Positions 28,539 to 49,863 of a DNA stretch of 64,000 nt are shown one piece after another (the stretch's first letter is position 1; each line of letters starts with the position of its first letter). Under the pieces are notes generated by a model. It saw only the letters and a list, made by a program, of their open reading frames with translations. It had not been told where the DNA came from and ran no database searches. Origin of the DNA: a phage; the sequence record PZ229304.1. One strand, 5' to 3'. The position numbers and the translations under genes are program-made.

Positions 28539-29519
28539 ATGGCAAAGCCACAATACTACCCTGACTGGGCGACACAAACAGTAACCCTCCCAGGAACGGG
28601 AAACACAAACAAAATTAGACCAAAAGAAACCATCCGTAATGTTGGTATGGACTTTGGTCAGATTATGACTTGTGAAGAAATGAACTGGATCTTAAACAAT
28701 ATTGGGTCTTGGATTCGCTATATGCAAGATGAATTCTTCCCAACATTACCTACTACATATCTTCCTATAGTCGGTACTAAAATTACAATGGCAGGTGATG
28801 CTACAGGTGAAGTTACATGGAATGGTAATGCTGCTGTAACATTATCTATTCAAGTCGTAGATAACAGCCATAATCACTTATCAGCTAATATTACAGACGC
28901 AACATCAAACCAAGTTGTAGGGAATGTCCTTGTTAAGCGTGATAATGGTGGTGCTATCTATGCAGGTGATATTTACACTTGTGGTACAGGTGCTACAGAT
29001 CCTGCAACATTATTTTTTAGAAACTATAATGGACAAACAGTAGGCAATATGTCTTCTGAACCAGGTGCAGGTGGTCAACTCTATATTTATAGAATAAATC
29101 CATCTACTGGAGGAACATCTTGTGGAGTTCGTTTGTATGATGCAGGTTATGTTTTAATAGACAATCCTCGTTCTAATTCTGGTCAAGATACTGGCAATGG
29201 TAATGCTCTTGTAAGATTAGATTATCTTAACTCAAGACTAAACTCATTGCAAAGTACACTGCAAAATAATATTAACAACGTTAATAGCAACTTGCAAGGC
29301 CAAATTAATAACATTAACAATAGAGTTTCTTCTGTTGTGTCTTCTATCCGTTTAGGTACACGTATTAAAGCTGGTGTATCTGAATCTCCTTTCTATGCTG
29401 GTCACGTGATCACAGGTTGGGGTTTTGGTGATAAGAAAGAACTTCGTGGTGCTTGGTATTGGTCTGCTCCGCTACAATATTACATTAATGGTAGGTGGAT
29501 AACAGTAACCAACGTTTAG
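28539..29519 (+). CDS. tail fibre protein
   Basis: 326 aa; Asn-rich coiled-coil-like segment (LNSRLNSLQSTLQNNINNVNSNLQGQINNINNRV) typical of fibre shafts. Confidence 0.45.
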   Translation: MAKPQYYPDWATQTVTLPGTGNTNKIRPKETIRNVGMDFGQIMTCEEMNWILNNIGSWIRYMQDEFFPTLPTTYLPIVGTKITMAGDATGEVTWNGNAAVTLSIQVVDNSHNHLSANITDATSNQVVGNVLVKRDNGGAIYAGDIYTCGTGATDPATLFFRNYNGQTVGNMSSEPGAGGQLYIYRINPSTGGTSCGVRLYDAGYVLIDNPRSNSGQDTGNGNALVRLDYLNSRLNSLQSTLQNNINNVNSNLQGQINNINNRVSSVVSSIRLGTRIKAGVSESPFYAGHVITGWGFGDKKELRGAWYWSAPLQYYINGRWITVTNV

Positions 29520-29531
29520 TAAGGAGAACAC

Positions 29532-30083
29532 ATGAAAAAAGATGTTATTTACACTGGCTTTGAACTATATCAACCAGAATTGACAGAAGAAAATGTCATC
29601 TATCTTTCAATAGGTGCTGGTTTTCTTAAAGATAAAGATGGTAATGATTGGTACGAAATTCAGAAATATTTATCCAAAAATTACCCTGATGCCTATTTCT
29701 TAACTCTAGATCACAACAATGTAGTTGTTGCAGCTACGAAAGATGTTTCTACATATTTTCCCGCTGGTCTTACTGTTCTTGTAACATACAATGTTCCAGA
29801 TAAAATAGAAGAAGAAAGCAACCTAGGGTCGTGGAGATATGACAATGGTAAGTTTATTTCTCATAATGGGTTTGCAATAGAAGATGCCAACCTTAAAATG
29901 GAAAAAGAATTAACTTGGGCCACAAATCAAATATCTGCAATTCAAGATTTAGAGGAATTACAAGGTTTATCTGAAGAACAAAAAGATTGGTTAGGAAAAG
30001 TTAAACTCTATCGTGCAACATTAATTCAAATTAACGTTGAAGATGCACCTAATATAACTTGGCCTACAAGACCTAAGAAATAG
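29532..30083 (+). CDS. tail fibre assembly / accessory protein (hypothetical)
   Basis: 183 aa directly downstream of a fibre gene. Confidence 0.3.
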   Translation: MKKDVIYTGFELYQPELTEENVIYLSIGAGFLKDKDGNDWYEIQKYLSKNYPDAYFLTLDHNNVVVAATKDVSTYFPAGLTVLVTYNVPDKIEEESNLGSWRYDNGKFISHNGFAIEDANLKMEKELTWATNQISAIQDLEELQGLSEEQKDWLGKVKLYRATLIQINVEDAPNITWPTRPKK

Positions 30084-30092
30084 GGGCAATGT

Positions 30093-30434
30093 ATGGAGCT
30101 AACAGAAGTATGGGATATCGCTAAAGAGGCGATTATCCCTCTTATTGGCGTAATCTGGGTGGTCTTCAAACAGAAGATAGATGATATGGCAAGTGATTTG
30201 GATAAAATGGAAGACAAATACCGCGAACTAGAAAAGAAGTTGGTGTTTGTTGAATCCACTTATGCTACCAAAGCAGAACTTGCTCAAATGCTTAACCAGA
30301 TCAATTCTACATTAATGGCAAATAATACTGCCTTAGAACAGAAGATTGAAAAAATAATGGATTTAAAAAATGCTCCTGTTCAATTAATGTTAGAGGAGAT
30401 TACGAAGCGCACACAAAGTAAGGACAAAAATTAA
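30093..30434 (+). CDS. small membrane-anchored coiled-coil protein (hypothetical)
   Basis: 113 aa; N-terminal hydrophobic segment IIPLIGVIWVVF then coiled coil. Confidence 0.3.
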   Translation: MELTEVWDIAKEAIIPLIGVIWVVFKQKIDDMASDLDKMEDKYRELEKKLVFVESTYATKAELAQMLNQINSTLMANNTALEQKIEKIMDLKNAPVQLMLEEITKRTQSKDKN

Positions 30435-32848
30435 TGGCGAATTTTCCAACATATCCTGCTACGACACTAGAACAAGGTGTTGATCTGGTTATATTCTCGT
30501 CTAACCAGATGCATGATGTTATTAATGGGGATGCTACAGCAACTGTAGAAACCGAAACAGGTTTAATACCTACACTGCGTAAAGCACTTGTTGATAACTT
30601 CTTCTTTAAGAGTCCTGTTGCTTGGTCAGCAGGATCAACTGAAACTGTATTTAACCAGTTACGTTATTTTGAAAACGGTATCTTGAGTGGGTACTATTAT
30701 GCCCCATCTGCCACTACTGCGAACCCTGTACCTATGCAGGGTACACCTGTAGGAGACAGTAACTGGACTCTGTACGCTCTTAAAACTGAACAGTTAGCTT
30801 CAGATGTGTATCCTTGGTATTTTAAAGGTGCTACAGGATATGAAACAGAAATCAGTCCTCCTTATATCTTTGATAATGCTATTGTCACCATTAACGGTGT
30901 AATTCAGATTCAAGGTGAAGCATTTACTATCAAAGATAGTAAAATTATTCTGGCAGAACCATTAGGTTTAGATCCGTCTACTGGTCTACCTAATAAATTG
31001 TTTGCTTTTATTGGTAAAACAACAGCCTCTACTTCTTACGTAGAGAAAAACCTTTTGTCATCTACCACTGGTGCAGCAATGGTTGGTCTTCCATCTGGAG
31101 GCAACCTGTTACAAGCTCAATACTTTGTAACGCCTGAGCAGTTTGGTGCAATTGGTGATGGAGTTACCGATGATACCCAAGCAATTTTAAAAACCATTAC
31201 TTTCGCTAACACGAATAACATTCAAGTACGTGCAGATAAGAATTATAGATTCACAAGCTCAATTGCTATGTCTGGTATTCGTTGGTATGGTGGTACATTC
31301 ACTGGTAACGGTGGAACAATGATTTCTACTGTGTCCTGTTGGATGGAAAACGTTCGCTTTGAAAAATGTTATGTTAAGATGTTAGGTGGTGATTGCCGAT
31401 TCTATCGTAATATTTTCTCCAACGCAACATCTACAGCAGCATTCTTAATGCAAGCAATGACAAGTGAAGGTACGTTGGACTTCAGTTACAACGAAATGTA
31501 TGGTTGTAAATATGCGATCCTGCAACAAGGTACTGGAGAAGTAATGACCTATGGGCGTTACTCTAACAACTATATTCACGATATCAAAGGTGATGCTATT
31601 GAACTTAACGTAGTTCAAAAACACTACACTGAAGGTTTGATTATCGAGAATAACCACATTGCTAACGTAGATGCTTCTGGACAAGGGGCAAACTGGGGTA
31701 TTGGTATTGGTGTAGCAGGTAGTGGCCCATATGGTGTTGATGTTCCTGATTCACAATATGTACGTAATTTCAGTATCATTGGGAATAGGGTTTACAATTG
31801 CCGTCAATGTTTACACGTTGAAATGGGTAAAAACTTCACAATACGTGATAATGAAGTTTATCCTAACACAGCAGTTTCAACAGGTACAGGTTTAACTACT
31901 TGTGGTGTTGCATTATACGGATGCCAAGATTTTGAAGTTGATGGTTTAACTGGTTATCTGCTTAATGATCCATCTGTTTCAACACGCATGGTCTTTATTG
32001 ACTGGGGTGTTAACAGCGGAAGATATGCGGGGCCACCAATTAACTTTACAATTAAGAATTTGGATATTCCAGAATCTTCAATTGAGATTGCAACGGCTGG
32101 ATCAGATGCTTGGGAAAACTCTACAATTGTTAGTAATATCAATTGTAATGTTTTTAAATGGCGTGGGCTACCATCTAGCTCTACCTTTAATAATATTCGT
32201 TGCCGTAGTATTGACTTTATTGGTCAACACGGAAGCGGAGAAGGAAGTGGTGGCGGTTTCTATACTCGCAGCCAATTCACGTATATGAAGTGGGTAGGAT
32301 GTACAGCACTTAGCGGAGATGAAACAACAGTTTCTTTTGCTAAAATCTACACTGATCGTTGCGATCAGGTTGGAAATAACTTTGGTGTTCCAACTGCTGT
32401 TGATGGTACAGGTCATCGTGGGCCAGTTTTAACTACTATTTCTGAACAATATTTTACAACTTATGATGAATTCCCAGGTGGGCGTGAATTCCCTACTGGA
32501 ACAGTTATTCATTGTGCAAGCGGTAAAAAACATGTTGTTACAGTAGGTGGTGCTTTCTTTAGTGCCAACGAGAAAATAAAAGCAACTGTTACAGGTCAAA
32601 CCTATCTACAGTCTAATGCTTTAAACTGGGCTAGTAATGGCTACGCTAAAGCAGCAGGTACTAAGATTGTTATTCCAGGTGCAGGTGCAAATGGCGGCGA
32701 TCTTGTGACAACTATAGCACGTGCTACATATGTGACAAATAGTTTGTACACAATAGATATTGCAGATCCAATTGTAACACCTACAGCAGAGAATACACAA
32801 ATTAAAGCTCTGAATCCTGTTACTTTTGTTACTGTCAACAATGCTTAA
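30434..32848 (+). CDS. tailspike protein with pectate-lyase/right-handed beta-helix domain (putative depolymerase)
   Basis: 804 aa; FVTPEQFGAIGDGVTDDTQAILKTITFAN is the classic pectate-lyase-type motif; Asn/Gly-rich beta-helix repeats. Confidence 0.65.
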   Translation: MANFPTYPATTLEQGVDLVIFSSNQMHDVINGDATATVETETGLIPTLRKALVDNFFFKSPVAWSAGSTETVFNQLRYFENGILSGYYYAPSATTANPVPMQGTPVGDSNWTLYALKTEQLASDVYPWYFKGATGYETEISPPYIFDNAIVTINGVIQIQGEAFTIKDSKIILAEPLGLDPSTGLPNKLFAFIGKTTASTSYVEKNLLSSTTGAAMVGLPSGGNLLQAQYFVTPEQFGAIGDGVTDDTQAILKTITFANTNNIQVRADKNYRFTSSIAMSGIRWYGGTFTGNGGTMISTVSCWMENVRFEKCYVKMLGGDCRFYRNIFSNATSTAAFLMQAMTSEGTLDFSYNEMYGCKYAILQQGTGEVMTYGRYSNNYIHDIKGDAIELNVVQKHYTEGLIIENNHIANVDASGQGANWGIGIGVAGSGPYGVDVPDSQYVRNFSIIGNRVYNCRQCLHVEMGKNFTIRDNEVYPNTAVSTGTGLTTCGVALYGCQDFEVDGLTGYLLNDPSVSTRMVFIDWGVNSGRYAGPPINFTIKNLDIPESSIEIATAGSDAWENSTIVSNINCNVFKWRGLPSSSTFNNIRCRSIDFIGQHGSGEGSGGGFYTRSQFTYMKWVGCTALSGDETTVSFAKIYTDRCDQVGNNFGVPTAVDGTGHRGPVLTTISEQYFTTYDEFPGGREFPTGTVIHCASGKKHVVTVGGAFFSANEKIKATVTGQTYLQSNALNWASNGYAKAAGTKIVIPGAGANGGDLVTTIARATYVTNSLYTIDIADPIVTPTAENTQIKALNPVTFVTVNNA

Positions 32849-34890: not shown

Positions 34891-37710
34891 ATGTATCCTA
34901 TTCCTTTATTTATGTCAACAACATCAGCTTCAGTAGTAACAGCTACATCTATAACCACTTCCTCTATTGGTATTGCAATAGTTGGTAGTAAAAAGCAACT
35001 GACATACACAGTTTCACCGGAAGATGGTGCGTTATTTGATATAGATTTTTCATCTTCAGATAATACCAAAATGGTTATAGATAATAATGGTATGATGGAG
35101 TTTGTTGCTGAAGGTGGTTTTGATGCAATAATGACAGCTAAAAATAATTTAGGTGCTGTCTTAACTGATCAATCTGGTGGTTATGCTTCAGAATTAAGTG
35201 TGTACACTGAAAGTCTATCTGCTATGGATGTAGGCACTACTCAACAGTTGGTTGCTACAATCAGTCCAGAAGGTGCTAAAGACCTTCCAGATATGGTAAT
35301 TACGTACACCACAACAGATCCAGAAGTGGCTACTGTAAGCCCTACAGGATTAATAACTGCTCTTAAAGATGGTAATTGCCGTATAGGTTGTACTGCAACG
35401 TATCAAGGAACAGTTGTGGCCTCTGATAGTTCTTATTTAGGTGTTAATGCTATTCCTGTTATTTCTAATGTAACAGCCGTGGCAAACAGCTATGGAGACG
35501 TTCGTGTTGCTTGGGATGTAGCTGATCCGCTAGATGGTGATACTTATACTGTAGAAGTATTAGATTTAAGTAATAATAGTGTTCAGTGGACTACAACAAC
35601 CACGAATACTCATGCTTACTTTGATATCTCTGACTCTATTCCTCTTTATGGGTTTGCTCCAACATACCTTAAAATTAGCGTTAAGAGCACCAAAGCAGCA
35701 GCCGTTATCTTTAATAACTCAATAGCTACAGATGATTCATTCATTAAAGAAGTTATTGTCTTTGCTGGACAAGATAACGTAAATGCACACTTTACAGAAC
35801 TATCTGGTGCAAATAAAGCAGCAATGAGTAGCACAACAGCCCGTAATGCATATGCTACGCAACGTGGTTTAGCAAATGCTGAAGTTCTTCCGTTAAATAC
35901 AGCTTCTGGATCATCAGCAGCAGATAAATATGCTGACGATAAAGCTGGAACAGGAACACCAGACAACTACTGGTATGATCTGGATAACACAGCAGATGGG
36001 CCATGCTTAACTAACTTTATCACTAAAGTCACACCTTATGCAAGTAAGGTTAAAGCCATTATTTGGGGACAAGGTGAAAATGATGCTGTATCAGCATCTT
36101 CAACTGTTGCAGGTAGATACAGTAACACTACACGTTACCATGATGCTACGATAGCTATCTTTGATAAGATGCGTACAATAGTTCCTGCTTCTCAAGCAAA
36201 AATTGTTTGGCAGATCCTAGGACGTTCTTATTTATATGGTGTAGAAGTCAATGGTGTGGATTGGCAGAAATACAGAAATGTACAAAGAGCCATCTCTACG
36301 GCACGTGATGATGTTATCATTGGTTCTTGGGTAGATGGTGCTGAACGTTACAGTGGTTACGTTTATGAAGAAGGTATTGATGGTCGTATCCATTATATTT
36401 CTTCTGTATACCAGACAGCAGCTACAAAACTTGCTAAATCAGCAGCAGACGGTACAGACCTAACATCAACGTCACCTGTTTGGGTTGATATGGCTGTTCC
36501 AACTGGAGCAACAGCTACTTCCCAACCTAATCAAGATACAATTTTAGCATGGGATGCTCAAGGCTATAGTAAACACTACTTCCGTAATATTAACGTCTTA
36601 ACCGCATCTGTATTAACTGAACAAACGCTTAATACGAACAGTTATACGTTTACCTATGCAGATCAAGTAGCACAATATGGTTTTGCAGCAGGAACTACTA
36701 TATTTGATGTTGCATATTATGACGAAGCAAATGATGTGTTATCTCCTTTAGTACGTTTTAATGTTAACGTTACAGCAGGAACCGAAGAAGATAAACCTGT
36801 CGTGATGGACTATGATTTGACGCAAGAAACTCTCCCATCAGATGTTAAGGTTAATGGTGGGAACTCTTTTGCTCGTGCTTCTGGAGATAAACTTGTAGCC
36901 ACTAACACCTTGGTTGCTCCGTTGGAGTATGTTGGTACTACCCCTGTAGGTAGACGTGTAACAGCTAACACAGCTACACAAATTTTTGTCAACAACGCCT
37001 TAACAAGTGCAAGCCCGTGGGTAAAGACCAACTTAACTGTTGCAGCTTCATCTGATAACTCTCCGGCTGGAACTACTGCTAATGTATTCAAATTAACTCC
37101 GACTACAACCTCTGGTAGTCATATCTTAACTGCAACATATACTAACGCGTACAACATAAATGCCGGACGTAACTGGTCTGCCTCTGTTTTCTTGAAAGCG
37201 AACGGGATTACTAAGGCTAAACTAAGATTAAAAGCAGGAACTGAAGTTAATGAGGGTACTTTTGATTTAGCAGCAGGTACATTCACAGGAAGTGAAGCTA
37301 ATATTATATCTATGGGCAACGGTTGGTATCGTGCTATTCTGCATAAAACAGGGATAGCCAAACAGTCCTTCATAAGTTTTGAAATAATTGCCTTGGATGC
37401 AACTGGTGCAGAGATTTTCGCTGGAAATGGTACTAGTAACCTTGCAGTTTGGTTGCCACAGCTTGAAGGTGCTTCTACAGGAGAAACATCAAAAGCTGGA
37501 TCGCCTTATGTCTGCACATATCCTGGAAATTTAGGAGGAGTATCCTTCACTATACCAAGGAACGGACATACTGGTGTGGATGTTTACTATTCCAACGGAG
37601 ACGTTGTTCGTGACGTATTCTCTGGTACGGCATCTACTTGGACAATAAACTACTCCAGCTTGTACGATTGGGGATCAGTCTTTATTACAGGTTTGAAATA
37701 TTACGACTAA
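34891..37710 (+). CDS. tail fibre protein with Ig-like (BIG2-type) domain and possible SASA/SGNH-like esterase domain
   Basis: 939 aa; BIG2-like segment (VGTTQQLVATISPEG...TYTTTDPEVATVSPTGLITALKDGNCRIGCTA); VIVFAGQDNVNAHF resembles the GQSN motif of sialate-O-acetylesterase-like domains; last gene of the plus-strand block. Confidence 0.45.
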   Translation: MYPIPLFMSTTSASVVTATSITTSSIGIAIVGSKKQLTYTVSPEDGALFDIDFSSSDNTKMVIDNNGMMEFVAEGGFDAIMTAKNNLGAVLTDQSGGYASELSVYTESLSAMDVGTTQQLVATISPEGAKDLPDMVITYTTTDPEVATVSPTGLITALKDGNCRIGCTATYQGTVVASDSSYLGVNAIPVISNVTAVANSYGDVRVAWDVADPLDGDTYTVEVLDLSNNSVQWTTTTTNTHAYFDISDSIPLYGFAPTYLKISVKSTKAAAVIFNNSIATDDSFIKEVIVFAGQDNVNAHFTELSGANKAAMSSTTARNAYATQRGLANAEVLPLNTASGSSAADKYADDKAGTGTPDNYWYDLDNTADGPCLTNFITKVTPYASKVKAIIWGQGENDAVSASSTVAGRYSNTTRYHDATIAIFDKMRTIVPASQAKIVWQILGRSYLYGVEVNGVDWQKYRNVQRAISTARDDVIIGSWVDGAERYSGYVYEEGIDGRIHYISSVYQTAATKLAKSAADGTDLTSTSPVWVDMAVPTGATATSQPNQDTILAWDAQGYSKHYFRNINVLTASVLTEQTLNTNSYTFTYADQVAQYGFAAGTTIFDVAYYDEANDVLSPLVRFNVNVTAGTEEDKPVVMDYDLTQETLPSDVKVNGGNSFARASGDKLVATNTLVAPLEYVGTTPVGRRVTANTATQIFVNNALTSASPWVKTNLTVAASSDNSPAGTTANVFKLTPTTTSGSHILTATYTNAYNINAGRNWSASVFLKANGITKAKLRLKAGTEVNEGTFDLAAGTFTGSEANIISMGNGWYRAILHKTGIAKQSFISFEIIALDATGAEIFAGNGTSNLAVWLPQLEGASTGETSKAGSPYVCTYPGNLGGVSFTIPRNGHTGVDVYYSNGDVVRDVFSGTASTWTINYSSLYDWGSVFITGLKYYD

Positions 37711-37715
37711 TAAAA

Positions 37716-37739
37716 AAGGAGCCATTAGGCTCCTTTTCT
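37716..37739. terminator. bidirectional terminator between convergent late (+) and replication (-) blocks
   Basis: AAGGAGCC-ATTA-GGCTCCTT hairpin flanked by an A-run upstream and a T-run downstream. Confidence 0.6.
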
Positions 37740-37745
37740 TTTATC

Positions 37746-38177
37746 TTAATCAGTGAAAATTACGCTTACATCTTCTTTAGAAAAGAGTTTATGATCTTCA
37801 CCTTTTGTCTCAAGAGTTTCATACAGGTTAAGAAGTTCTGAAACATCTTTCTCTACCAGTTTCTTCAATGTTGCAATTTTCTGTTTGCGATTCTTAATAC
37901 GTTCAGCTACAACCTTACGTTGGTATCCAGCAGTACGATAACCTGAGAAAGTTACACCAGTGAGACTTGCAGTTACAGGATCGTAATGACGTTCAATCTG
38001 AAATTTATTAAAAGGTACAGCGTCATCACGAATAATCTTCCCGCCATTACTTACTTGACGAAGACCAGTAACTTGTTCTAGTCGTGCCATAGAAATCTTT
38101 GGAGACAGACCAGAGTCCAAGTTCATACCATTGTTAATCAGTGCTTTCAGGGTGATTTTGCTGTTCAGTGTACTCAT
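37746..38177 (-). CDS. hypothetical protein
   Basis: 143-aa ORF; an internal Met at 38126 would avoid overlap with the methyltransferase gene. Confidence 0.3.
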   Translation of the reverse strand: MSTLNSKITLKALINNGMNLDSGLSPKISMARLEQVTGLRQVSNGGKIIRDDAVPFNKFQIERHYDPVTASLTGVTFSGYRTAGYQRKVVAERIKNRKQKIATLKKLVEKDVSELLNLYETLETKGEDHKLFSKEDVSVIFTD

Positions 38178-38865
38178 TTAGTCGTTCCTCCGCTTGCTTA
38201 AAAATATTTACATCGGCTTCACAGCCTAAGTATTCTCTACCTGTTAAAAGTGCCGCAACTTGTGTTGTTGCACTTCCAGAGAAGAAGTCTAAGACTACAT
38301 CTCCTTCGTTGGTGTGTATATTAATAAGGTCACAAAACAAAGTCAAGTGTTTTTGTGTTGGATGAAAACGATCTGCTCCTTGATAGATAGGATACTCAAA
38401 CACACCCTTATGGTAGGAAGCATTGAAGGTTGGCTTAGAACCTTTAACACAAACAATAGCCATTTCTTTAGCGTTACTAAGGTAGTTAACACCACTGTTG
38501 ATGGGTACAGGGTTTGTTTTAATCCATTCGATAGTACGGAACATACGAAAACCAAGCGGTTCAAGGATTTCACGTAGCTCCTGGATCTTCCAGATATCAT
38601 ACCAAACTATGCAAGTACCACCTTTTCTAAGCACCCTGTAGGCTTCTTTGAATACTTCTTTAAAGTAAGGAATATCTACAACATCCCAATCACCAAAGTT
38701 GTAAGATACACGGAATCTATCCGTATCTTTTCCAGTAGGCTCTCCAGACTGAAAATTTGTGTCACGAGAAATAGCATATGGTGGGTCAGTAAGAATCAAA
38801 TCTACACTATTGCTTTCGAGGGTTTGCAAGTAGTTTAATGCGGTGTTGTTTACAAATTCGCTCAT
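38134..38865 (-). CDS. DNA methyltransferase (beta-class, probably N6-adenine)
   Basis: DLILTDPPYA (motif IV) precedes VLDFFSGSATT (SAM-binding motif I); 243 aa; no adjacent restriction endonuclease. Confidence 0.7.
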   Translation of the reverse strand: MSEFVNNTALNYLQTLESNSVDLILTDPPYAISRDTNFQSGEPTGKDTDRFRVSYNFGDWDVVDIPYFKEVFKEAYRVLRKGGTCIVWYDIWKIQELREILEPLGFRMFRTIEWIKTNPVPINSGVNYLSNAKEMAIVCVKGSKPTFNASYHKGVFEYPIYQGADRFHPTQKHLTLFCDLINIHTNEGDVVLDFFSGSATTQVAALLTGREYLGCEADVNIFKQAEERLNEYTEQQNHPESTD

Positions 38866-38883
38866 TATATCTCCTTCAAAGAA

Positions 38884-38902
38884 AAGGAGCCGTTAGGCTC
38901 CT
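38884..38902 (-). terminator. terminator hairpin downstream of SSB-like gene
   Basis: AAGGAGCC-GTTA-GGCTCCTT, near-identical to the hairpin at 37716; A-run on plus strand gives a U-tract for the minus transcript. Confidence 0.5.
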
Positions 38903-38925
38903 TATATTCACACAATATTTAACTA

Positions 38926-39873
38926 TTAGAAACAGTGCAGGAAGTTTCGACCATACTGCAAACCAATAGGAGCAAATGGGATATCATCATCGAAATCTTG
39001 AACAACAGGTTCTGGTTCTTTCGGTGCTGGCTCTTTCTTCTCTACTTTTTTAGTTTCTTTCTTAACTTCTTGTACTGGGGCAGACATTCCACGGATAGCA
39101 GCAGCTACTTTATCAGACAAAGCAAGAACTTCACGAGCAGCTTCAATAATCTCTTCTGCCGTTACAGTCTTACCTGTATGATCACGACAAGCGTTAAGAA
39201 TTGCGTGTCCAACTGAAGCACCAAGATCATAGTCAGTCACATCAACGCCACGATCTTTAGCAATTTCTGCTTTCAGAGTAACAGTTGCAGATTGTACCAC
39301 ACCAGCCAAGTCGAAAGCATCGCCTTTCACACCAGCACGTAGAAGCTCCAGAGCGCCGTTTACAGCGTGTCCTGTTTCAATCCCTACGGTATCACGTTTT
39401 TTGTAGTTAGGCTTGCTACCTTCGTTATTAGATGGCTTATTTCCACCTTTTGAAGAAGATTGTGCTTGCTGAACACCTTCTGTTGAAAGAATAGTGATTT
39501 TACCTTTAGAGGAATTGTAGTATGTTTTGCCATTCCATTCAGAAGGTTTAACATCCATAGTTAGTTCTACACCTTTTTCGATAGTAACCCACTTGTCACC
39601 ATCTTTAACTTGCAGGTTTTCATGTTCTGGATGCAGTTTAACTTCACCTAGGCTAACCCAAACACCTTTATCATCAGCACCAGCACCTTTCTCTTTAATA
39701 AGCAGAGATGCTTTGTGAGTTGATTCAATTTTCTTATCTGGCTGACCTGCAACCTTAATATAAGAGACTTTCATTTCATCAAACTTATCTAGTTTGACAT
39801 ATTCAACGATACCTTCAGCCCAGAATGCTTCTTTTTTAGTACGACGGTCGATTTCAGAATTAATTACTGGCAT
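38926..39873 (-). CDS. ssDNA-binding protein-like, carrying an SSB-type acidic DFDDDIPF motif
   Basis: 315 aa; low-complexity Gly/Ser/Asn/Lys linker; Lys/Glu/Pro-rich segment followed by DFDDDIPF (identical to the E. coli SSB C-terminal tip) 15 residues before the C-terminus. Confidence 0.45.
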   Translation of the reverse strand: MPVINSEIDRRTKKEAFWAEGIVEYVKLDKFDEMKVSYIKVAGQPDKKIESTHKASLLIKEKGAGADDKGVWVSLGEVKLHPEHENLQVKDGDKWVTIEKGVELTMDVKPSEWNGKTYYNSSKGKITILSTEGVQQAQSSSKGGNKPSNNEGSKPNYKKRDTVGIETGHAVNGALELLRAGVKGDAFDLAGVVQSATVTLKAEIAKDRGVDVTDYDLGASVGHAILNACRDHTGKTVTAEEIIEAAREVLALSDKVAAAIRGMSAPVQEVKKETKKVEKKEPAPKEPEPVVQDFDDDIPFAPIGLQYGRNFLHCF

Positions 39874-40288: not shown

Positions 40289-40331
40289 TCAAGTCCTCAT
40301 AATAACACATAATTATAATGTTTGTCAACAC

Positions 40332-40946
40332 TTAAATCTTAAATTCTTCGTTGTTAAATGAATCCAGTGTACGTACTTCTGGTTCTTTGGGAATGAAAAC
40401 GTCTTTTACAAAGCGGAACATAGGGAAACGTTCTGCCATTTTACGGACGTGTGCTTCTTTACCTGTGTATCGGTGATTAATAGTACAAATATTAGTTTTC
40501 AGTGCAAATTCAAAATCTGGATGATATACATAATTTTGACCATCCCAGTAACACAAGCAAATAGCTACATCAAAGTTCCATACGATTTCACTGCGTACAC
40601 CTTCTTCCATGATCATAAAGTTAAACTTAAGATCTTTATAGTATGCTTCAAATACCCATTTCAAATGTGGTAGTTCGGCATAAGTGTGTTCTGTTTGCTT
40701 AGTAAGTTGTTTAACATTACGTGCACCAACACCCAACATCAAAAACTTCTCTACTAGCACGAGTGTATTGTGGTTAGGCATACGCAAGTAAATGTCAATG
40801 TCTTGTGCAGGTTTCTCTAATCGCCAATCACGTACAGCGCCGCCAGCTACAATTGCAAACGGATCTACCAGTTGGCACATACGTAATACTTCTAAAGCTC
40901 GTACTTTTTGATCTTCAATATTCATATTTTCTCCTATCGTGTCCAC
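40332..40946 (-). CDS. minimal Pol-beta-superfamily nucleotidyltransferase (CCA-adding / poly(A) polymerase head-domain-like)
   Basis: 204 aa; IVAGGAVRDWRLEKPAQDIDIY matches the GGAVRD...DxD signature of the CCA/poly(A) polymerase head domain. Confidence 0.45.
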   Translation of the reverse strand: MDTIGENMNIEDQKVRALEVLRMCQLVDPFAIVAGGAVRDWRLEKPAQDIDIYLRMPNHNTLVLVEKFLMLGVGARNVKQLTKQTEHTYAELPHLKWVFEAYYKDLKFNFMIMEEGVRSEIVWNFDVAICLCYWDGQNYVYHPDFEFALKTNICTINHRYTGKEAHVRKMAERFPMFRFVKDVFIPKEPEVRTLDSFNNEEFKI

Positions 40947-41530
40947 TCTTTGTGTTGTTCTACATGCTCAAGCATTTCATTATATAGTGCTTTAAGATGT
41001 GGAACAACTCTTTCATCTTCAGTCTCAAAGAATTTTGTAAGCTGTTCTGCCTTAGCCTTCAACCAACAAAGATGCGCTTCAATTTCAGTATTAAAACGTC
41101 CCAGTGTTATAACACGTCCATCACGTTGAATATGGGCTTTATACTTTTTACGATCTTTTTCGTAACTACATCCTACCATAGTCCCATGAGATCTTTTACT
41201 TACTCTATAAGCTAAGAACTTGTTAAGATCTCCTGTTACTAAAAGACAGGTATCGGGAGAGTAAACTCTCCCTCCTATAATATCTTTATCAAGTTCTAAG
41301 TTTTCCCAGTTATCCCAAGTTTGCAACCAAGAGTAGAAATTGGAGAACAGTTTCCATTCTTCACAAACCGTCACCCCATTATAACAAGGATCACGTTCTT
41401 GTTGACAAGGGGAGTAACACCTCCCCAACATAGCCATCCATTTCATATAATGCGGCGTTAGTTTCTTACTACCAGGTAGCGTACTCTCGCCTTCCAAATC
41501 ATTAATACCTTCACCATATACGGTAAGCAT
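40934..41530 (-). CDS. AP2-domain protein, putative homing-endonuclease-like DNA-binding protein
   Basis: 198 aa; C-terminal YKAHIQRDGRVITLGRFNTEIEAHLCW fits the AP2 fold signature; sits next to the DNA polymerase gene; no catalytic HNH/GIY-YIG motif seen. Confidence 0.4.
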   Translation of the reverse strand: MLTVYGEGINDLEGESTLPGSKKLTPHYMKWMAMLGRCYSPCQQERDPCYNGVTVCEEWKLFSNFYSWLQTWDNWENLELDKDIIGGRVYSPDTCLLVTGDLNKFLAYRVSKRSHGTMVGCSYEKDRKKYKAHIQRDGRVITLGRFNTEIEAHLCWLKAKAEQLTKFFETEDERVVPHLKALYNEMLEHVEQHKEWTR

Positions 41531-41557: not shown

Positions 41558-44137
41558 TCAGTGACAAGACGCCCATGAGTTACCAACATCGTAACCAGCA
41601 GTTAGAGGTACATTAAGATTGTAATACTCACCAGCTTTATTAACAGCGATAGATGCTAATTCTCCAGCACGACTGTAGGCTGTAAACCAACCACCTTTAG
41701 GAGATTCATGTACGTTAGCCCAAATCTTGCCAGTACGTTTCTCTTCCTCTTCTTTCCAGGCGTTAACTTTATCCAAACATTCTTTATCAATTTTCTTTTG
41801 TTCTTCTGGATCATCAACTTGAGTCCAACCTAAAGATTCTTTAGAGAACCATTTAAAATGCACCAGATCACGAGTTACTTCAAGCTGCGCTTCATCGTGA
41901 TATGCAATCATTTGTTGAACGAATGACTTATTTTTCCAGTCATCAACAAAAAAGTCAACAGCTAATCCTTCTTCTTCGATAAGATCATCGTAGATAACCA
42001 TTGCTCTTTTTGCACAAATAACACCACCACTCTGGAACAGAGAGTTAAGTATTGCGTGTGCAGATCGTGTAGGTACTTTCCTACCATCAATACCAAGAAT
42101 GTATTTCTTACCTGTTTTAACCCAAAAATCATGCAGACGTTCTTTAAGAAGCGCAAGAGGTTTTGCAGCTTCCCAGAAAGCATCGTATACAAGCTGTCCT
42201 GTATACATATCACTACCAATGGTTTTTGCTACTTTTGCAGCTTGAGCACCATAAGTAATACCATACTTAACAGATTTAGCAGGGCTTCGTTCAAACTTAC
42301 GACCAATAGTATCAGAAATACGTCGAGCCATCATTGTATGAACATCATTAGGTTTTTCCAACAACAGAGCATTACAATATTCGTGTGGTTCCTGCTCGTA
42401 CCGCCAACAGTAGTGTGATTCTATTTTTGCCTCAAGAGAATCAAAGTCATAACCAATTTGGAAGTATTTTGGAACTTCTACACCAAATAAGTTACGCATT
42501 TCATATCCGTACAGAGATGTTACACGTGGGATATTTGCTACTAACCTATGTTTCATACGAGACGTAGCTGCATCACACGTTGCAGCAGGAGTTGGTATAC
42601 GACCATCAGCCCTTACTGCCGCCAGATAACCTTTATCGTAATCCTCTTCATCTTCTTCCCAATCAGCACCACCACCTAGAATAGAGTTTCTACGATGTTT
42701 ATACGTAAGATACTGCACAATCTGCGTAGCATAAGGAAACTTTTCACCTAGTGCTTCCAAGTTAGGACAAATATCCTTCTCTTGCCCTTTTGTAAAGGAA
42801 GGGTTAGTAAGCACTTTAACACCACGACCTTTAGCTTTAGCAATACGATCTCTTAGTTTCCATTCCAAAGTTTCTGGTGTGCACTCCAGATGATCACATC
42901 TATCCTGGCAGAAGTTAGATGCTAATGTTTGATCAACATAGTCACGAATAGCTTTCTCCATTTGTGCTTCATCTTTCTTAATCTTAGTGCCAGATTTAAG
43001 AGTGATATCTTTATCTTTATATTCAGATGGACTCCAACCTAAACCAACTAACCAATTTTTAATATGTGTCGTGTCGTCTAAAGTAGCAGGTACTGTAGGA
43101 TCACAAATAGGTTCTTCTGCTGGAATAGGGAGTTTAAACTCTTTACCTAATGCAAATAACCACCAACCATCTTCTTTTTGTACAAGTTCACCAGAATGTT
43201 TCTCTGCAAACTTTATCATGTTACTTGAAGGTTCACCATTCTTTTTAAACTGTAGTTTAGGTGGAATGAATGATTTCAAATAACCTTTAGTAGCAGGTTT
43301 AGGAGGTAGTACAGGTTCTGCCTCTAAACGACATGCTTCCATTCGAGCATCCAGATCACGAATATTATCTTCTGCTTGTTTCATATTGAAAGCAAAGCCA
43401 CGGTGCTCTTGACGTGTAATAATATCAGCTACACGTTGTTCTAAGTTAAATGGTTCAGACCACTTACTATAATCGCCCCACTCTTCCATCAAATAACGGA
43501 ACACTGCGGTGTTAGCTTTGTTATCGTAAATACAGTAATACAGCATATCTGCTGCAAATGTTCTAAATCTTTCAGTTTCAGGAATGTTTTTTCTGAAATC
43601 AATTTTAACATCCCCTCCAGCTTTCTTAGATAACTCTGCCAGACTATGACCACCGAAGCGATCAGGGTTTAGTGTCTTACTTAAGATCATAGTATCACAA
43701 ATTTCAATGTTACTATTACCCCAAGTATTGTACTTAATACTGTAGTTGAGTTTAAAAAATAATTTAATTGCCAGTAAGTCGAAGTTAATGATGTTGTGTC
43801 CAACTACTTTGGTAATTTTATAGTTTGAATTACCTTTAAATTTACCTGTTCCATTTACAAAATCAGGAAAATCTTTAAGAGGGAAATGGGTATATTCTAA
43901 ATGCTCATATTCCTCCAGTCGGTATTCATACTTTCCGTCAGTCTCAACATATGGACGACCATCGAAAAGATATTTATCACCATCATGGAAAGCAATAATC
44001 TCTCCAGTATCATGACTTTCGCACACAATACAGTGCATTGCAAAACTATCTTTTAAACGATATGGACTTGCCAAGTAATCTACACTTTCGTCATTAAGCA
44101 AGTTGTTACTTTCAATGTCGAAAGTAAAAGCTCCCAT
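41558..44137 (-). CDS. DNA polymerase, family A, with 3'-5' exonuclease domain
   Basis: 859 aa; N-terminal FDIESNN (Exo I, DxE); motif B-like RSPAKSVKYGITYGAQA; motif C-like IAYHDEAQLEV. Confidence 0.8.
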   Translation of the reverse strand: MGAFTFDIESNNLLNDESVDYLASPYRLKDSFAMHCIVCESHDTGEIIAFHDGDKYLFDGRPYVETDGKYEYRLEEYEHLEYTHFPLKDFPDFVNGTGKFKGNSNYKITKVVGHNIINFDLLAIKLFFKLNYSIKYNTWGNSNIEICDTMILSKTLNPDRFGGHSLAELSKKAGGDVKIDFRKNIPETERFRTFAADMLYYCIYDNKANTAVFRYLMEEWGDYSKWSEPFNLEQRVADIITRQEHRGFAFNMKQAEDNIRDLDARMEACRLEAEPVLPPKPATKGYLKSFIPPKLQFKKNGEPSSNMIKFAEKHSGELVQKEDGWWLFALGKEFKLPIPAEEPICDPTVPATLDDTTHIKNWLVGLGWSPSEYKDKDITLKSGTKIKKDEAQMEKAIRDYVDQTLASNFCQDRCDHLECTPETLEWKLRDRIAKAKGRGVKVLTNPSFTKGQEKDICPNLEALGEKFPYATQIVQYLTYKHRRNSILGGGADWEEDEEDYDKGYLAAVRADGRIPTPAATCDAATSRMKHRLVANIPRVTSLYGYEMRNLFGVEVPKYFQIGYDFDSLEAKIESHYCWRYEQEPHEYCNALLLEKPNDVHTMMARRISDTIGRKFERSPAKSVKYGITYGAQAAKVAKTIGSDMYTGQLVYDAFWEAAKPLALLKERLHDFWVKTGKKYILGIDGRKVPTRSAHAILNSLFQSGGVICAKRAMVIYDDLIEEEGLAVDFFVDDWKNKSFVQQMIAYHDEAQLEVTRDLVHFKWFSKESLGWTQVDDPEEQKKIDKECLDKVNAWKEEEEKRTGKIWANVHESPKGGWFTAYSRAGELASIAVNKAGEYYNLNVPLTAGYDVGNSWASCH

Positions 44138-46417: not shown

Positions 46418-46687
46418 CTAAAATGATTCGTTTGTCTCCATAATATATTGCATTTCCAAATCTTCCATATGTTTCTTAAATTGGTAAACAATTTCCGATG
46501 GGGAAATATCTATATCAAAAAGTTCTTTTGTACCAGAATAAAACCTAATACCATCAACAATAAGACCACCATAATAATCCCAATCACTTTCTCGTGAGAA
46601 AGGATTAGGTTCTTCATAATAGTAATCTACTTCAACAATAATAGGTTCTTTATTATCTTGTTTATACTCAAAATCAAAAGTGTTCAT
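46418..46687 (-). CDS. hypothetical protein
   Basis: 89-aa acidic ORF. Confidence 0.3.
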   Translation of the reverse strand: MNTFDFEYKQDNKEPIIVEVDYYYEEPNPFSRESDWDYYGGLIVDGIRFYSGTKELFDIDISPSEIVYQFKKHMEDLEMQYIMETNESF

Positions 46688-47631
46688 TATAAATCCTCGA
46701 TAAGCAGTCTGCGGGTTTCATTTAAATCATCAATATTGTAGTTATCTCTTACATACTTAGCAAGAGCTAATCCTTTCTCAATACAAACATCAGGAGATTC
46801 GATTAAGTATTCTACAATATCTTTCCACTCTTTAACTGAATCAGCAAAGAAGATTAGATCTTTAAATTCTTCAGTATAATAGTTCTCCCGTGGTGAACAA
46901 ACGAGTGGCAAACCTTTAGCACCAGCTTCAAGAATTTTTAAATTACTTTTGGCATTATTAAAATGATTATTTACTAATGGAGCTATGGAGATTTGATGAC
47001 CATCGTATGCTTCCATATAACACTCATAAGGACGAATACCTTCATAAACACAATCTGGTTGAATATCTTCTTTAATTTGCAACCATTGAGCACTACTTAA
47101 CTCTTCATGATCTCTACGAAATCCACATAAAGTTAAATCTTTACCAAAACTAGGAAGAATAGCTAAATCATGTTTATGTGTTTCACTTCCCGCCCAAACC
47201 AGTGGACTTTTAGAATAACGATCTTTCGTAAGAACAAACTGTCCTTCATCAAAAGGTAGTCCATTAGGCACAATATGTACATTATCATTGTATTGGCTTA
47301 ATTCAACCTTTAATGCTGGAGTTGTTGTAGTTACAAGATCGCTTCTTTCAAGGAACCATTTTAGATCATCTCGGATTTGATTTTCAAATAATCCTTCAAG
47401 CATATGTCCTTCAGGGATAATTAAAGAATCATCCAGATCCATTACCAATTTAAACCCAAGTTGTTTAAGAGCCAGGAAACCTGGCTTTCCACGGGTTGGT
47501 ACTCCATTGAACACAAAAATATTATGCTTAGGATTGATGGTCAGTTTGCGTTTATATGGCAAAATGATTCTATGAAAATCACATACACTATACTTTTCAT
47601 TTCCGCGTGTGTCAAGAATAATATTAGGCAT
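46687..47631 (-). CDS. glycosyltransferase (GT-B-like), paralogue A
   Basis: 314 aa; C-terminal NAKSNLKILEAGAKGLPLVCSP resembles the GT1/GT4 donor-binding motif; clear paralogue of the adjacent gene. Confidence 0.45.
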   Translation of the reverse strand: MPNIILDTRGNEKYSVCDFHRIILPYKRKLTINPKHNIFVFNGVPTRGKPGFLALKQLGFKLVMDLDDSLIIPEGHMLEGLFENQIRDDLKWFLERSDLVTTTTPALKVELSQYNDNVHIVPNGLPFDEGQFVLTKDRYSKSPLVWAGSETHKHDLAILPSFGKDLTLCGFRRDHEELSSAQWLQIKEDIQPDCVYEGIRPYECYMEAYDGHQISIAPLVNNHFNNAKSNLKILEAGAKGLPLVCSPRENYYTEEFKDLIFFADSVKEWKDIVEYLIESPDVCIEKGLALAKYVRDNYNIDDLNETRRLLIEDL

Positions 47632-47642
47632 ATCGCTCCTTA

Positions 47643-48617
47643 TTAAAGACTTTCAATAACTTGACGACGCAGTTCATTGGCATCTGCAAGATTATAATTA
47701 AGACGAACGTGTTCTGCAAGCATCATACCACGATCTTCTGTGTATCTAGGGTTTCTCATTAGCTTCACAACTTCATAATGCCAAGATGCTTTAGAGTCTG
47801 CATAGATAACAGCCTTTGCATCTACCGGATTGAAGTACGGCAGCACAGGAGAACAGATAATAGGAAGACCCTTTGCACCTGCTTCCAAAATCTTCAAATT
47901 GCTTTTACAGTTGTTGAAGTCATTATCTACCAGAGGAGCAATTGCAATACTGTGACCGTCATACACAGACATATACTCACCTAAATTTTTAATAGCTGGT
48001 TTATACTGTGCATTTGGAATTTTACGTTTTACTTTAACCCACTCCGCAGTAGTTAGATACTGACTATTATTTCCAACAGGTGCAGAAGGATACACTTCAT
48101 ACCCTGCAATTGTCAATAGTGTATCATCAAATGTATTAGCTACAAGAGATAAATCAGGTTCATGGCTTGCTCCTCCAGCCCAAATAATAGGCGTGTCAGA
48201 ATAACGGTCTTTTGTCAAAGTAAATTGACCTTCGTCGTAAGGTAGTGCGTTTCTAATAACGACAACATTACGATTTAAATGACGAATTTTGTAAGCTAGG
48301 TATTCTGTTGTTACTGTAACAACATCTGCTAACTTAACCATTTCTACAATAGTCTTTGAATGATTAGTAAATACGCCAGCCATATAATGTTCAGGATTAA
48401 GTGAATAAAAGTCATCTAAATCAACAATAATCTTAACACCTTGTGCCTTCAGGCGTTTAACTTCGTCTGCTCCATGAGAATACACTCTATTAAAAACTAA
48501 AACGTCTTTCTTAGGTTTAAACGTATTTCCAGCAAATGGCATTACAATACGATGGTAATCACAACCACTGCCTAACTTATTATCACACTTAAGTACAGGA
48601 GTATTAGGATTTACCAT
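47643..48617 (-). CDS. glycosyltransferase (GT-B-like), paralogue B
   Basis: C-terminal NCKSNLKILEAGAKGLPIICSP. ORF track starts at 48656; the Met at 48617 has a GAGGAGG RBS and minimal overlap with the upstream gene. Confidence 0.45.
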   Translation of the reverse strand: MVNPNTPVLKCDNKLGSGCDYHRIVMPFAGNTFKPKKDVLVFNRVYSHGADEVKRLKAQGVKIIVDLDDFYSLNPEHYMAGVFTNHSKTIVEMVKLADVVTVTTEYLAYKIRHLNRNVVVIRNALPYDEGQFTLTKDRYSDTPIIWAGGASHEPDLSLVANTFDDTLLTIAGYEVYPSAPVGNNSQYLTTAEWVKVKRKIPNAQYKPAIKNLGEYMSVYDGHSIAIAPLVDNDFNNCKSNLKILEAGAKGLPIICSPVLPYFNPVDAKAVIYADSKASWHYEVVKLMRNPRYTEDRGMMLAEHVRLNYNLADANELRRQVIESL

Positions 48618-49290
48618 ATTTTTGAGCCTCCTCATAAGAGATAAAAGTTTTACCATTGCGAAGATCCTCCAGTGATTGTTTATATTGTTCCCAGTTTACA
48701 CCAATCCCCTGTTCTTTCTCTTCTTTTGACAGATTCGCAAAAGGTAAAGGATTGTCTCCAAACACATCGTCAGGATGGATAAACGCCATAATTCGAATAG
48801 GACATGGTACGCCTGGAATACCTCGGTTCAAACCTGCCAGCGGAACGCGCTGAATCCACTCTGCATCTTCATATCCATAACCGTGGGTGTATGAGCGGAA
48901 ATAGCCAGCTTTCTCAATAACTGCACGGGAATACATACCAAACTGGCACATCCCTAGTTCCCAAATAACCACTTCCCCTTCAATACCTTTTACTTTATCT
49001 TTAAAGTATTCAGGCATACCAAAGAAATCCCAACCATTTTCCTTCGCCTGTTTTACAAAATATGTTTCCCAACCTTGAACAACAGGATAACAATCATCAT
49101 CAAAAATAAACCAGTAATCATACCCTTCATCATAAAACTTTTTCATCAGTTCATTACGAGCATATGCAACACCTTTTCGTTCCCGATCATACTGTACAAC
49201 AAAAGTAGCATTAGGATCAGTCACAAGATAGTCTTTAAGAGGACGCTTACCTACAGTAATAACACCAACACCAATTTTTGTATTTTCCAA
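48604..49290 (-). CDS. putative glycosyltransferase (GT-A-like, DxD)
   Basis: 228 aa; WFIFDDDCYP acidic DxD-type motif; same operon as the GT-B pair. Confidence 0.35.
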   Translation of the reverse strand: MENTKIGVGVITVGKRPLKDYLVTDPNATFVVQYDRERKGVAYARNELMKKFYDEGYDYWFIFDDDCYPVVQGWETYFVKQAKENGWDFFGMPEYFKDKVKGIEGEVVIWELGMCQFGMYSRAVIEKAGYFRSYTHGYGYEDAEWIQRVPLAGLNRGIPGVPCPIRIMAFIHPDDVFGDNPLPFANLSKEEKEQGIGVNWEQYKQSLEDLRNGKTFISYEEAQKYGKS

Positions 49291-49299
49291 AATAACTCC

Positions 49300-49863
49300 T
49301 TAAATAATTTTATTCATGTCTTGACAATGTAAAAGGTGTGAAACAGCTTTTCTAGGATCATCGTTACCTAAACGGTAGGTGTGAAATAAATATAACCCAC
49401 GTAGTAAACCTAGCCTTTTATTGTTAGCGTGTAATGCTTTAGAGAAAATTATATCAAACTGTATTGATCTTTCCTCAAAAGGGATTTCATTCCACAGACT
49501 CTTACGAAAGAGAAGAAAGAATCCTGCTAAGATAGCATCTGTAGGTACTTCCTCTATTGAGTTTCCCCATTCTAGATGTGCTCTTTTTGCAATCTCAATG
49601 TGGTGTAATATATTTGGATCTTCACTTCTTTCATTATTAAATAATTGATATGTTGATCCCAATCTATTACAAGATGCACCAAGAACATCAAAATCAGGAT
49701 TTGAACGAACTATTGATTCCAGCCAAGCAGGTTGTTCTGGAAGAAGAAACATTGTATCAATGTCTCTTAGGCAAATCCAACTATCTTCTGGTAAGACACT
49801 TATTGTGTCATTGATACCTTTTCCAATATCTCCAGAAAGATAGGGAGTTATGTGAAATATCAT
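49300..49863 (-). CDS. hypothetical protein, possibly nucleotide-sugar transferase-like
   Basis: 187 aa; CLRDIDTMF DxD-like motif; first gene of the glycosyltransferase block. Confidence 0.25.
   Translation of the reverse strand: MIFHITPYLSGDIGKGINDTISVLPEDSWICLRDIDTMFLLPEQPAWLESIVRSNPDFDVLGASCNRLGSTYQLFNNERSEDPNILHHIEIAKRAHLEWGNSIEEVPTDAILAGFFLLFRKSLWNEIPFEERSIQFDIIFSKALHANNKRLGLLRGLYLFHTYRLGNDDPRKAVSHLLHCQDMNKII

Follow-up and report, generated by a model that had tools for sequence, protein, structure and literature searches.

Genes and features at the locus

The stretch of phage DNA analysed here, 64,000 nt long and referred to as the window, belongs to a Justusliebigvirus, one of the phi92/alia-like E. 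coli myophages, and shares 98-99% identity with the phages ESCO9, VEcB and alia of this genus. Its minus strand encodes a small nucleotidyltransferase (NTase), identical to phi92 gp158, which is annotated 'nucleotidyltransferase', and found also in the BASEL phage Bas60. Database labels for the protein are 'nucleotidyltransferase', 'putative tRNA nucleotidyl transferase/poly(A) polymerase' and 'hypothetical protein'. The gene is not new, as it is annotated already and falls in a Pfam family; experimental work on the NTase family, on Pfam family PF26128 or on short Gad2 forms was not found in the literature.

Two starts are available to the open reading frame, GTG 40946 and ATG 40925, with a common stop at 40332-40334. 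In the preliminary description, the protein had 204 aa and the signature GGAVRD...DIDIY. The frame and the motif are real, but the length is likely 197 aa. Translation likely starts at ATG 40925 and not at GTG 40946: a GGAG lies 5 nt ahead of the ATG and overlaps the TAG that ends the HNH gene upstream, and the ATG is the start used by RefSeq (phage alia gp038) and by independent gene calls on metagenomic contigs. The 204-aa form is called in one GenBank record (Bas60). The seven codons that separate GTG from ATG are probably not translated. Table 1 gives the positions of the genes and motifs.

Table 1. Genes, signals and conserved motifs of the NTase locus, in window positions
Feature	Position	Strand	Remark
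NTase CDS, 197 aa	40332..40925	-	stop codon 40332-40334 included
Seven extra codons under GTG start	40926..40946	-	contains GGAG (40931-40934), overlaps HNH stop (40934-40936)
HNH homing endonuclease gene, between DNA polymerase and NTase	40934..41530	-	
Family A DNA polymerase, upstream gene of block	41558..44137	-	
Near-consensus sigma-70 promoter-like site	40299..40328	-	TTGACA-18-TATTAT, extended TG, 11/12; consensus match only
A27-G-G-A-V-R-D-W34, glycine-rich turn of motif A	40824..40847	-	family conservation
D42-I-D44-I-Y46, two predicted metal-binding aspartates, start of strand 43-48	40788..40802	-	conservation and model
F118-D-V-A-I-C-L-C-W126, strand	40548..40574	-	aligns with Gad2 'FDFTVCMG' and CCA-enzyme motif B 'RRDFTINA'
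Y153...K162...R166-F167-P168, conserved C-terminal helix	40422..40469	-	position of first neck helix

Gene neighbourhood and divergence

The NTase belongs to a same-strand block with the order primase/helicase, 131-aa gene, DNA polymerase, HNH gene and NTase, and no strong promoter or terminator match was found between the DNA polymerase and NTase genes. An otherwise identical metagenomic contig (L014) lacks the HNH gene, which thus looks like a mobile insertion. In related phages, an intein or insertion is seen in the polymerase gene instead (H13/H14); the ZCKP1 polymerase measures 1110 aa. Directly after the primase/helicase, four successive ORFs (46687-49863, minus strand) are annotated as glycosyltransferases in the sister phage, which encodes a dTDP-rhamnose pathway elsewhere.

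The promoter-like site of Table 1 lies directly 3' of the NTase stop codon, ahead of a 132-aa and a 315-aa gene, and a terminator-like hairpin (38884-38903, minus strand) follows the 315-aa gene. Judged by these signals, the two genes would form a separate two-gene transcript. The 315-aa protein (38926-39873, minus strand), encoded two genes downstream of the NTase, carries the motif QDFDDDIPF near its C-terminus. It resembles MDFDDDIPF, the C-terminal tip of E. coli SSB that recruits SSB-interacting proteins, and is internal here, with 16 more residues after it. The protein corresponds to phrog_4477 and is labelled a single-stranded DNA-binding protein in one GenBank record. Pfam matches were not found in the genes neighbouring the NTase.

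The order polymerase, NTase, 130-aa gene and 310-aa gene is retained in Phapecoctavirus. Between the two Stephanstirmvirinae genera, identity of the NTase amounts to 37% and is higher for its neighbours, at 74-87% in the polymerase and 56-63% in the pair of genes downstream; the NTase is the fastest-diverging gene of its syntenic replication-module block. Elsewhere, the neighbours of homologues are genes for ligase, exonuclease, polymerase or ribonucleotide reductase. Only this replication or nucleotide-metabolism setting recurs, and no constant partner gene was found near them in Phapecoctavirus, in ICP1, in Vibrio and Aeromonas phages or on metagenomic contigs. On one such contig (ERZ27235435 k119_17901; L012 6543-7835), from a 135-kb relative, a 48%-identical NTase is followed by an overlapping 430-aa gene, the product of which contains WGR, PARP regulatory and PARP catalytic domains. 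Encoded by a phage next to a Gad2-like NTase, this PARP-like ADP-ribosyltransferase could also serve counter-defence.

Homologue family and predicted fold

The NTase matches phrog_1614 ('nucleotidyltransferase') with an E-value of 2e-34. A word-indexed homologue search gave only two clusters, and the family was collected by exhaustive HMMER searching of 1.84 billion cluster representatives, with 991 relatives at E ≤ 1e-3 and 278 at E ≤ 1e-10. Nearly all measure 175-230 aa; the family therefore consists of stand-alone proteins. Scanning of ten longer homologues (261-400 aa) found no fused domains, and their extensions are probably gene-call artefacts. Homologues occur in 196 phage records, cluster members are phage proteins or derive from phage-sized contigs, and the family is essentially phage-borne. 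A 139-aa truncated version (phrog_10174-like) is gp223 of Vibrio phage ICP1 (L003 4959-5378), which keeps the GG...DxD region and lacks the C-terminal third.

In an alignment of 121 members, G28, G29, W34, D42 and D44 are invariant, and Q6, A10, A27, A30, R32, D33, Y82 and K162 are conserved in at least 90%. K162 is present in 145 of 152 family sequences. The NTase is mildly acidic (pI 6.3), and the family median is also 6.3.

The AlphaFold model built with the family alignment has a mean pLDDT of 92.8 and a pTM of 0.86; a single-sequence run gave a pLDDT of 34. [quoted passage not shown] A stand-alone Pol-beta-type NTase with a CCA/poly(A) head and without body and tail had been proposed earlier. 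Model and domain search agree with that proposal, and structure prediction, the check suggested at the time, places the fold inside the Pol-beta NTases. Membership among the MenT/MNT proteins or the CD-NTases was considered and rejected, as PADLOC gave no hits and the fold is nearer the class II enzymes. Model matches, a closest fold or a partner gene as expected of MenT/AbiEii, of the MNT of HEPN-MNT or of CD-NTases were not found for the NTase.

Similarity to CCA-adding enzymes and tRNA context

Motif A of the CCA-adding enzymes (GGxVRD, then DxD) is present as AGGAVRDW (residues 27-34) and DIDIY (residues 42-46), and only around this motif do profile searches align the NTase confidently with PDB sequences and E. 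coli-type CCA enzymes. The PF01743 score, 19.1 bits, is below the gathering cut-off of 23, and the match is limited to residues 26-81 of the NTase, corresponding to profile positions 3-59 of 126. With the NCBIfam CCA equivalogs, 14-15 bits are reached where the cut-offs are 281-290. By hhalign, the NTase family reaches a probability of 40.8% with a CCA profile of 121 sequences (E. coli and 120 close relatives).

Beyond motif A, the mapping of motifs B and D by profile alignment is of low confidence. The RRD motif B is not conserved: the aligned segment is V115-W-N-F-D119 (VWNFDVAIC versus RRDFTINA), the family consensus there is V-x-x-F-[P/D/S] without the conserved arginines, and both motif B arginines are missing from the strand F118-W126. 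EDxxR occurs nowhere in the NTase. The helix in the equivalent place, Y153-TGKEAHVR-K162, is set at the site of CCA-enzyme motif D by a low-confidence hhalign alignment (41%). E. coli-type CCA enzymes carry PF01743 and PF12627 (with or without PF01966); no match to PF12627 or to another RNA-binding domain was found in the NTase, which ends at residue 197.

No tRNA genes were found in the window. In the near-identical sister phage alia, the 3' CCA is encoded in all 15 tRNA genes, so that these tRNAs need no CCA synthesis for their maturation, and participation of the NTase in tRNA maturation was rejected on this ground. E. coli possesses its own Cca enzyme. The 46.9-kb Vibrio phage 402E50-1 carries a clear member of the NTase family and no tRNA gene, and fold relatives are common in the small genomes of Autographiviridae. 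In the sister phage, the RNA ligase/phosphoesterase pair and the tRNA cluster are far from the NTase gene.

In the alia segment analysed (L009, 103000-147009), the stretches 29454-30939 and 37281-39768 carry a putative RNA ligase adjoining a phosphoesterase, a 190-aa 'histidyl tRNA synthetase' fragment and the 15 tRNA genes. Alia may thus possess a tRNA-repair module separate from the NTase.

Relationship to Gad2

Gad2, the second anti-defence protein against Gabija in SPbeta-like Bacillus phages, has 400 aa and is predicted by AlphaFold to be a nucleotidyltransferase. Knockout of Gad2 makes SPbetaL7 sensitive to Gabija, and a Brevibacillus laterosporus homologue restores resistance. Overexpression of SPbetaL7 Gad2 is toxic, and so is that of a small NTase of phage Emajogi assigned to the 'Gad2 family'. 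A review of February 2026 lists the mechanism of Gad2 as unknown. Gad2 is among the few phage anti-defence proteins that are predicted to act enzymatically.

The exact window protein has a precomputed Pfam assignment to PF26128 'Gad2', unmarked, that is at E ≤ 1e-5. For comparison, the Gad2 set comprised the verified B. laterosporus homologue and six others from Supplementary Table 10 of the discoverers. Aligned by hhalign with the N-termini of these seven proteins, the NTase family (121 sequences) reaches a probability of 98.0% (E 2.1e-13, 154 columns), and with the single verified B. laterosporus Gad2 still 93.3% (E 2.8e-7). The family HMM gives 13-26 bits for Gad2 proteins versus 6-10 bits for CCA enzymes. 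Conversely, an HMM of the seven Gad2 N-termini matches the NTase alone among the 361 ORFs of the window (29.0 bits; next 4.6). BLASTP between the NTase and the verified Gad2 yields 24% identity over 117 aa (E 8e-5). Among the PHROGs, the verified Gad2 matches phrog_1614 (2.3e-6), and the window NTase matches phrog_4400 of Gad2 (7.5e-4). The GG and DxD of the NTase active site align column for column with AGG...DLDVY of Gad2. It is therefore highly probable, on these sequence comparisons, that the NTase is a true homologue of the Gad2 NTase domain.

A separate counterpart of the C-terminal half of Gad2 was not found in the neighbouring genes or among the 361 window ORFs with an HMM of Gad2 C-terminal halves. 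The discoverers' own list of Gad2 homologues includes NTase-domain-only forms of 214-278 aa, one of them with GGSLRDY. The identity of about 24% and the different PHROG imply that the function of the NTase may have diverged from that of Gad2.

The assignment to CCA/poly(A)-type enzymes made in the preliminary description thus holds for the fold of the head, but the nearest characterised relative, missed at that stage, is Gad2 (98% versus 41%). The common database label 'tRNA nucleotidyltransferase/poly(A) polymerase' on such small phage proteins is probably misleading.

Proposed function

The window protein is probably an active nucleotidyltransferase, as judged from its sequence and predicted fold. 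An NTP with Mg2+ would be bound by the GGAVRD turn together with D42/D44 and a likely third carboxylate, E93, and the invariant residues together with the fold suggest that an NMP would be transferred to an acceptor hydroxyl. The enzyme would be produced together with the replication genes. In the preferred explanation, to which about even chances are given, the NTase is a short-form enzyme of the Gad2 family by which a Gabija-type defence would be neutralised. This host defence, a nuclease complex sensing DNA ends and nucleotide levels, would be disabled by chemical modification and not by stoichiometric binding.

A role in counter-defence may well exist, because of the Gad2 homology, the accessory distribution, the fast divergence and the toxicity of relatives. 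That the NTase is directed specifically against Gabija is doubtful. The toxicity of SPbetaL7 Gad2 and of the Emajogi NTase suggests action on a general cellular substrate. As to the acceptor, a polynucleotide 3' end, of DNA or RNA, is a tentative proposal. Such a 3'-OH is preferred since the close structural neighbours all tail 3' ends and since Gabija acts at DNA ends, where current models place it. A defence protein or a nucleotide are alternative acceptors and stay in play because the NTase is acidic and without a binding module. Several observations weaken the explanation by counter-defence. The NTase lacks the C-terminal half of the verified Gad2 proteins, of which no separate copy was found in the window, and with an identity of about 24% and another PHROG its function may differ from theirs. 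A mildly acidic pI of 6.3 is unusual for a lone binder of nucleic-acid ends and counts against it, and the adjacency to the DNA polymerase gene fits a role in replication or nucleotide metabolism equally well.

Repair of tRNA was the leading idea of the preliminary description. A minimal tRNA nucleotidyltransferase would repair or complete CCA ends that host nucleases have damaged on tRNAs of the host or phage. The nearest structures (CCA-adding, A-adding and poly(A) enzymes), the weak PF01743 and NCBIfam CCA matches over motif A, the investment of the phage lineage in tRNA biology (15 tRNA genes, RNA ligase and phosphoesterase) and several GenBank records reading 'putative tRNA nucleotidyl transferase/poly(A) polymerase' are in line with it. 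Nevertheless, such a role is improbable, and the repair of tRNA 3' ends suggested in the preliminary description is not supported. PF01743 stays at 19.1 bits, under its threshold of 23, and covers residues 26-81 only; RRD, which serves ribose recognition, is not conserved, nor, in a low-confidence alignment, is EDxxR, which serves base templating; and the NTase has no body or tail for holding a tRNA. The phage tRNA genes encode CCA in 15 of 15 cases and E. coli has its own Cca, the family extends to a 46.9-kb Vibrio phage without tRNA genes, fold relatives occur in small phage genomes such as those of Autographiviridae, and the NTase gene is distant from the tRNA and RNA-ligase loci. Finally, profiles of E. 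coli-type CCA enzymes match at 41% probability, those of Gad2 at 98%. The NTase is thus more likely a counter-defence than a tRNA repair enzyme, and the Gad2 link shifts its likely biology from the latter to the former.

Other activities of the same fold deserve consideration, and the tagging of RNAs or production of a nucleotide signal, put forward in the preliminary description, retain some probability. An RNA-tailing enzyme or host-shutoff toxin (poly(A)-polymerase- or MenT-like) would extend the 3' ends of host mRNA, tRNA or other RNAs with untemplated nucleotides and so redirect or block the expression of host genes, independently of any defence. Only a minor chance is given to this activity, as PADLOC, MenT and AbiEii matches and an antitoxin-like partner gene are lacking, the NTase is neutral to acidic without a module for RNA binding, class II heads match its fold far better than MenT does, and its gene is part of the replication block and not grouped with the early genes typical of host takeover. 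A slim chance is left for a terminal (deoxy)nucleotidyl transferase that would serve replication or packaging by acting on phage DNA at 3' ends, nicks or primers. With it agree the site between the DNA polymerase and the protein bearing the SSB-like tail, conserved in both Stephanstirmvirinae genera, the location of small NTases of other phages likewise among replication genes, and the loss of the ribose-discriminating RRD, which is compatible with the use of dNTPs. Highly improbable is synthesis of a small nucleotide product, either a dinucleoside polyphosphate or a signal serving as decoy or inhibitor, which would target a host sensor and, for example, hold a nucleotide-gated nuclease inactive: PADLOC/CD-NTase matches are absent, the fold is clearly nearer the polynucleotide-tailing class II enzymes than cGAS/DncV-like or RelA/SpoT-like ones, and no effector or receptor gene lies nearby.

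A broader reading extends the counter-defence proposal to the whole group of short Gad2-like NTases (about 1000 clusters; Escherichia, Vibrio, Aeromonas and other phages), which would embody a general counter-defence chemistry. The nucleotide would be attached to a 3' end or nick of DNA, or else to a defence protein or nucleotide cofactor, and end-sensing or nucleotide-gated nucleases would be blinded, namely Gabija and possibly those of Shedu or Ppl type. The 197-aa NTase of the E. coli phage would then represent the minimal catalytic unit. This extension is rather improbable.

If the NTase inhibits Gabija or another defence, the NTase domain alone is sufficient for inhibition. As an inhibitor, it would be handy in the hunt for the substrate, with half the size of Gad2, a high-confidence model and genetically tractable phages of a model host. 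In this context, a short form in a phage of the model bacterium E. coli could help to solve the open mechanism of Gad2.

Comparison with known systems

Compared with the CCA-adding and poly(A) enzymes of known structure (PDB 3aql, 4wby, 1miv and 3h37), the window NTase has about half the size, a neck reduced to one helix, and neither body nor tail; RRD and, in a low-confidence alignment, EDxxR are not conserved, and profile similarity is confined to motif A. A bacterial stand-alone protein of the 'CCA-adding enzyme head domain' type is NP_344798.1 of S. pneumoniae (PDB 2la3, 191 aa), with only 9% identity to the NTase and no relationship detected at the sequence level. Small NTases of Autographiviridae and other phages (LKD16, Pectobacterium PP47 gp28, Emajogi gp22) have 165-215 aa and the same fold, which Foldseek against BFVD matches to that of the window NTase at E 1e-6 to 1e-8. 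Those of the Autographiviridae type have replication genes as neighbours, as the window NTase does; 'Gad2 family' is the present annotation of some of these small proteins, and one proved toxic when overexpressed. They differ by an identity of only 14-21% and by membership in other PHROG and sequence clusters.

Gad2 differs from the window NTase in several respects. Verified Gad2 proteins have 394-400 aa, with a C-terminal half of about 200 aa, and the NTase corresponds to the N-terminal NTase half only. Gad2 has GG(T/A)ITS, whereas the window NTase retains GGAVRDW, as in CCA enzymes, and belongs to phrog_1614 and not to phrog_18122. The two nevertheless have in common the series AGG-x(10,11)-D[LI]D[VI]Y[FL], F-D-x-x-x-C and [DE]-F, and also a conserved Q in the next-but-one strand ('vQlm'). 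Finally, Gad2 (in SPbetaL7 and in the B. laterosporus prophage) and the window NTase are both phage-borne and accessory.
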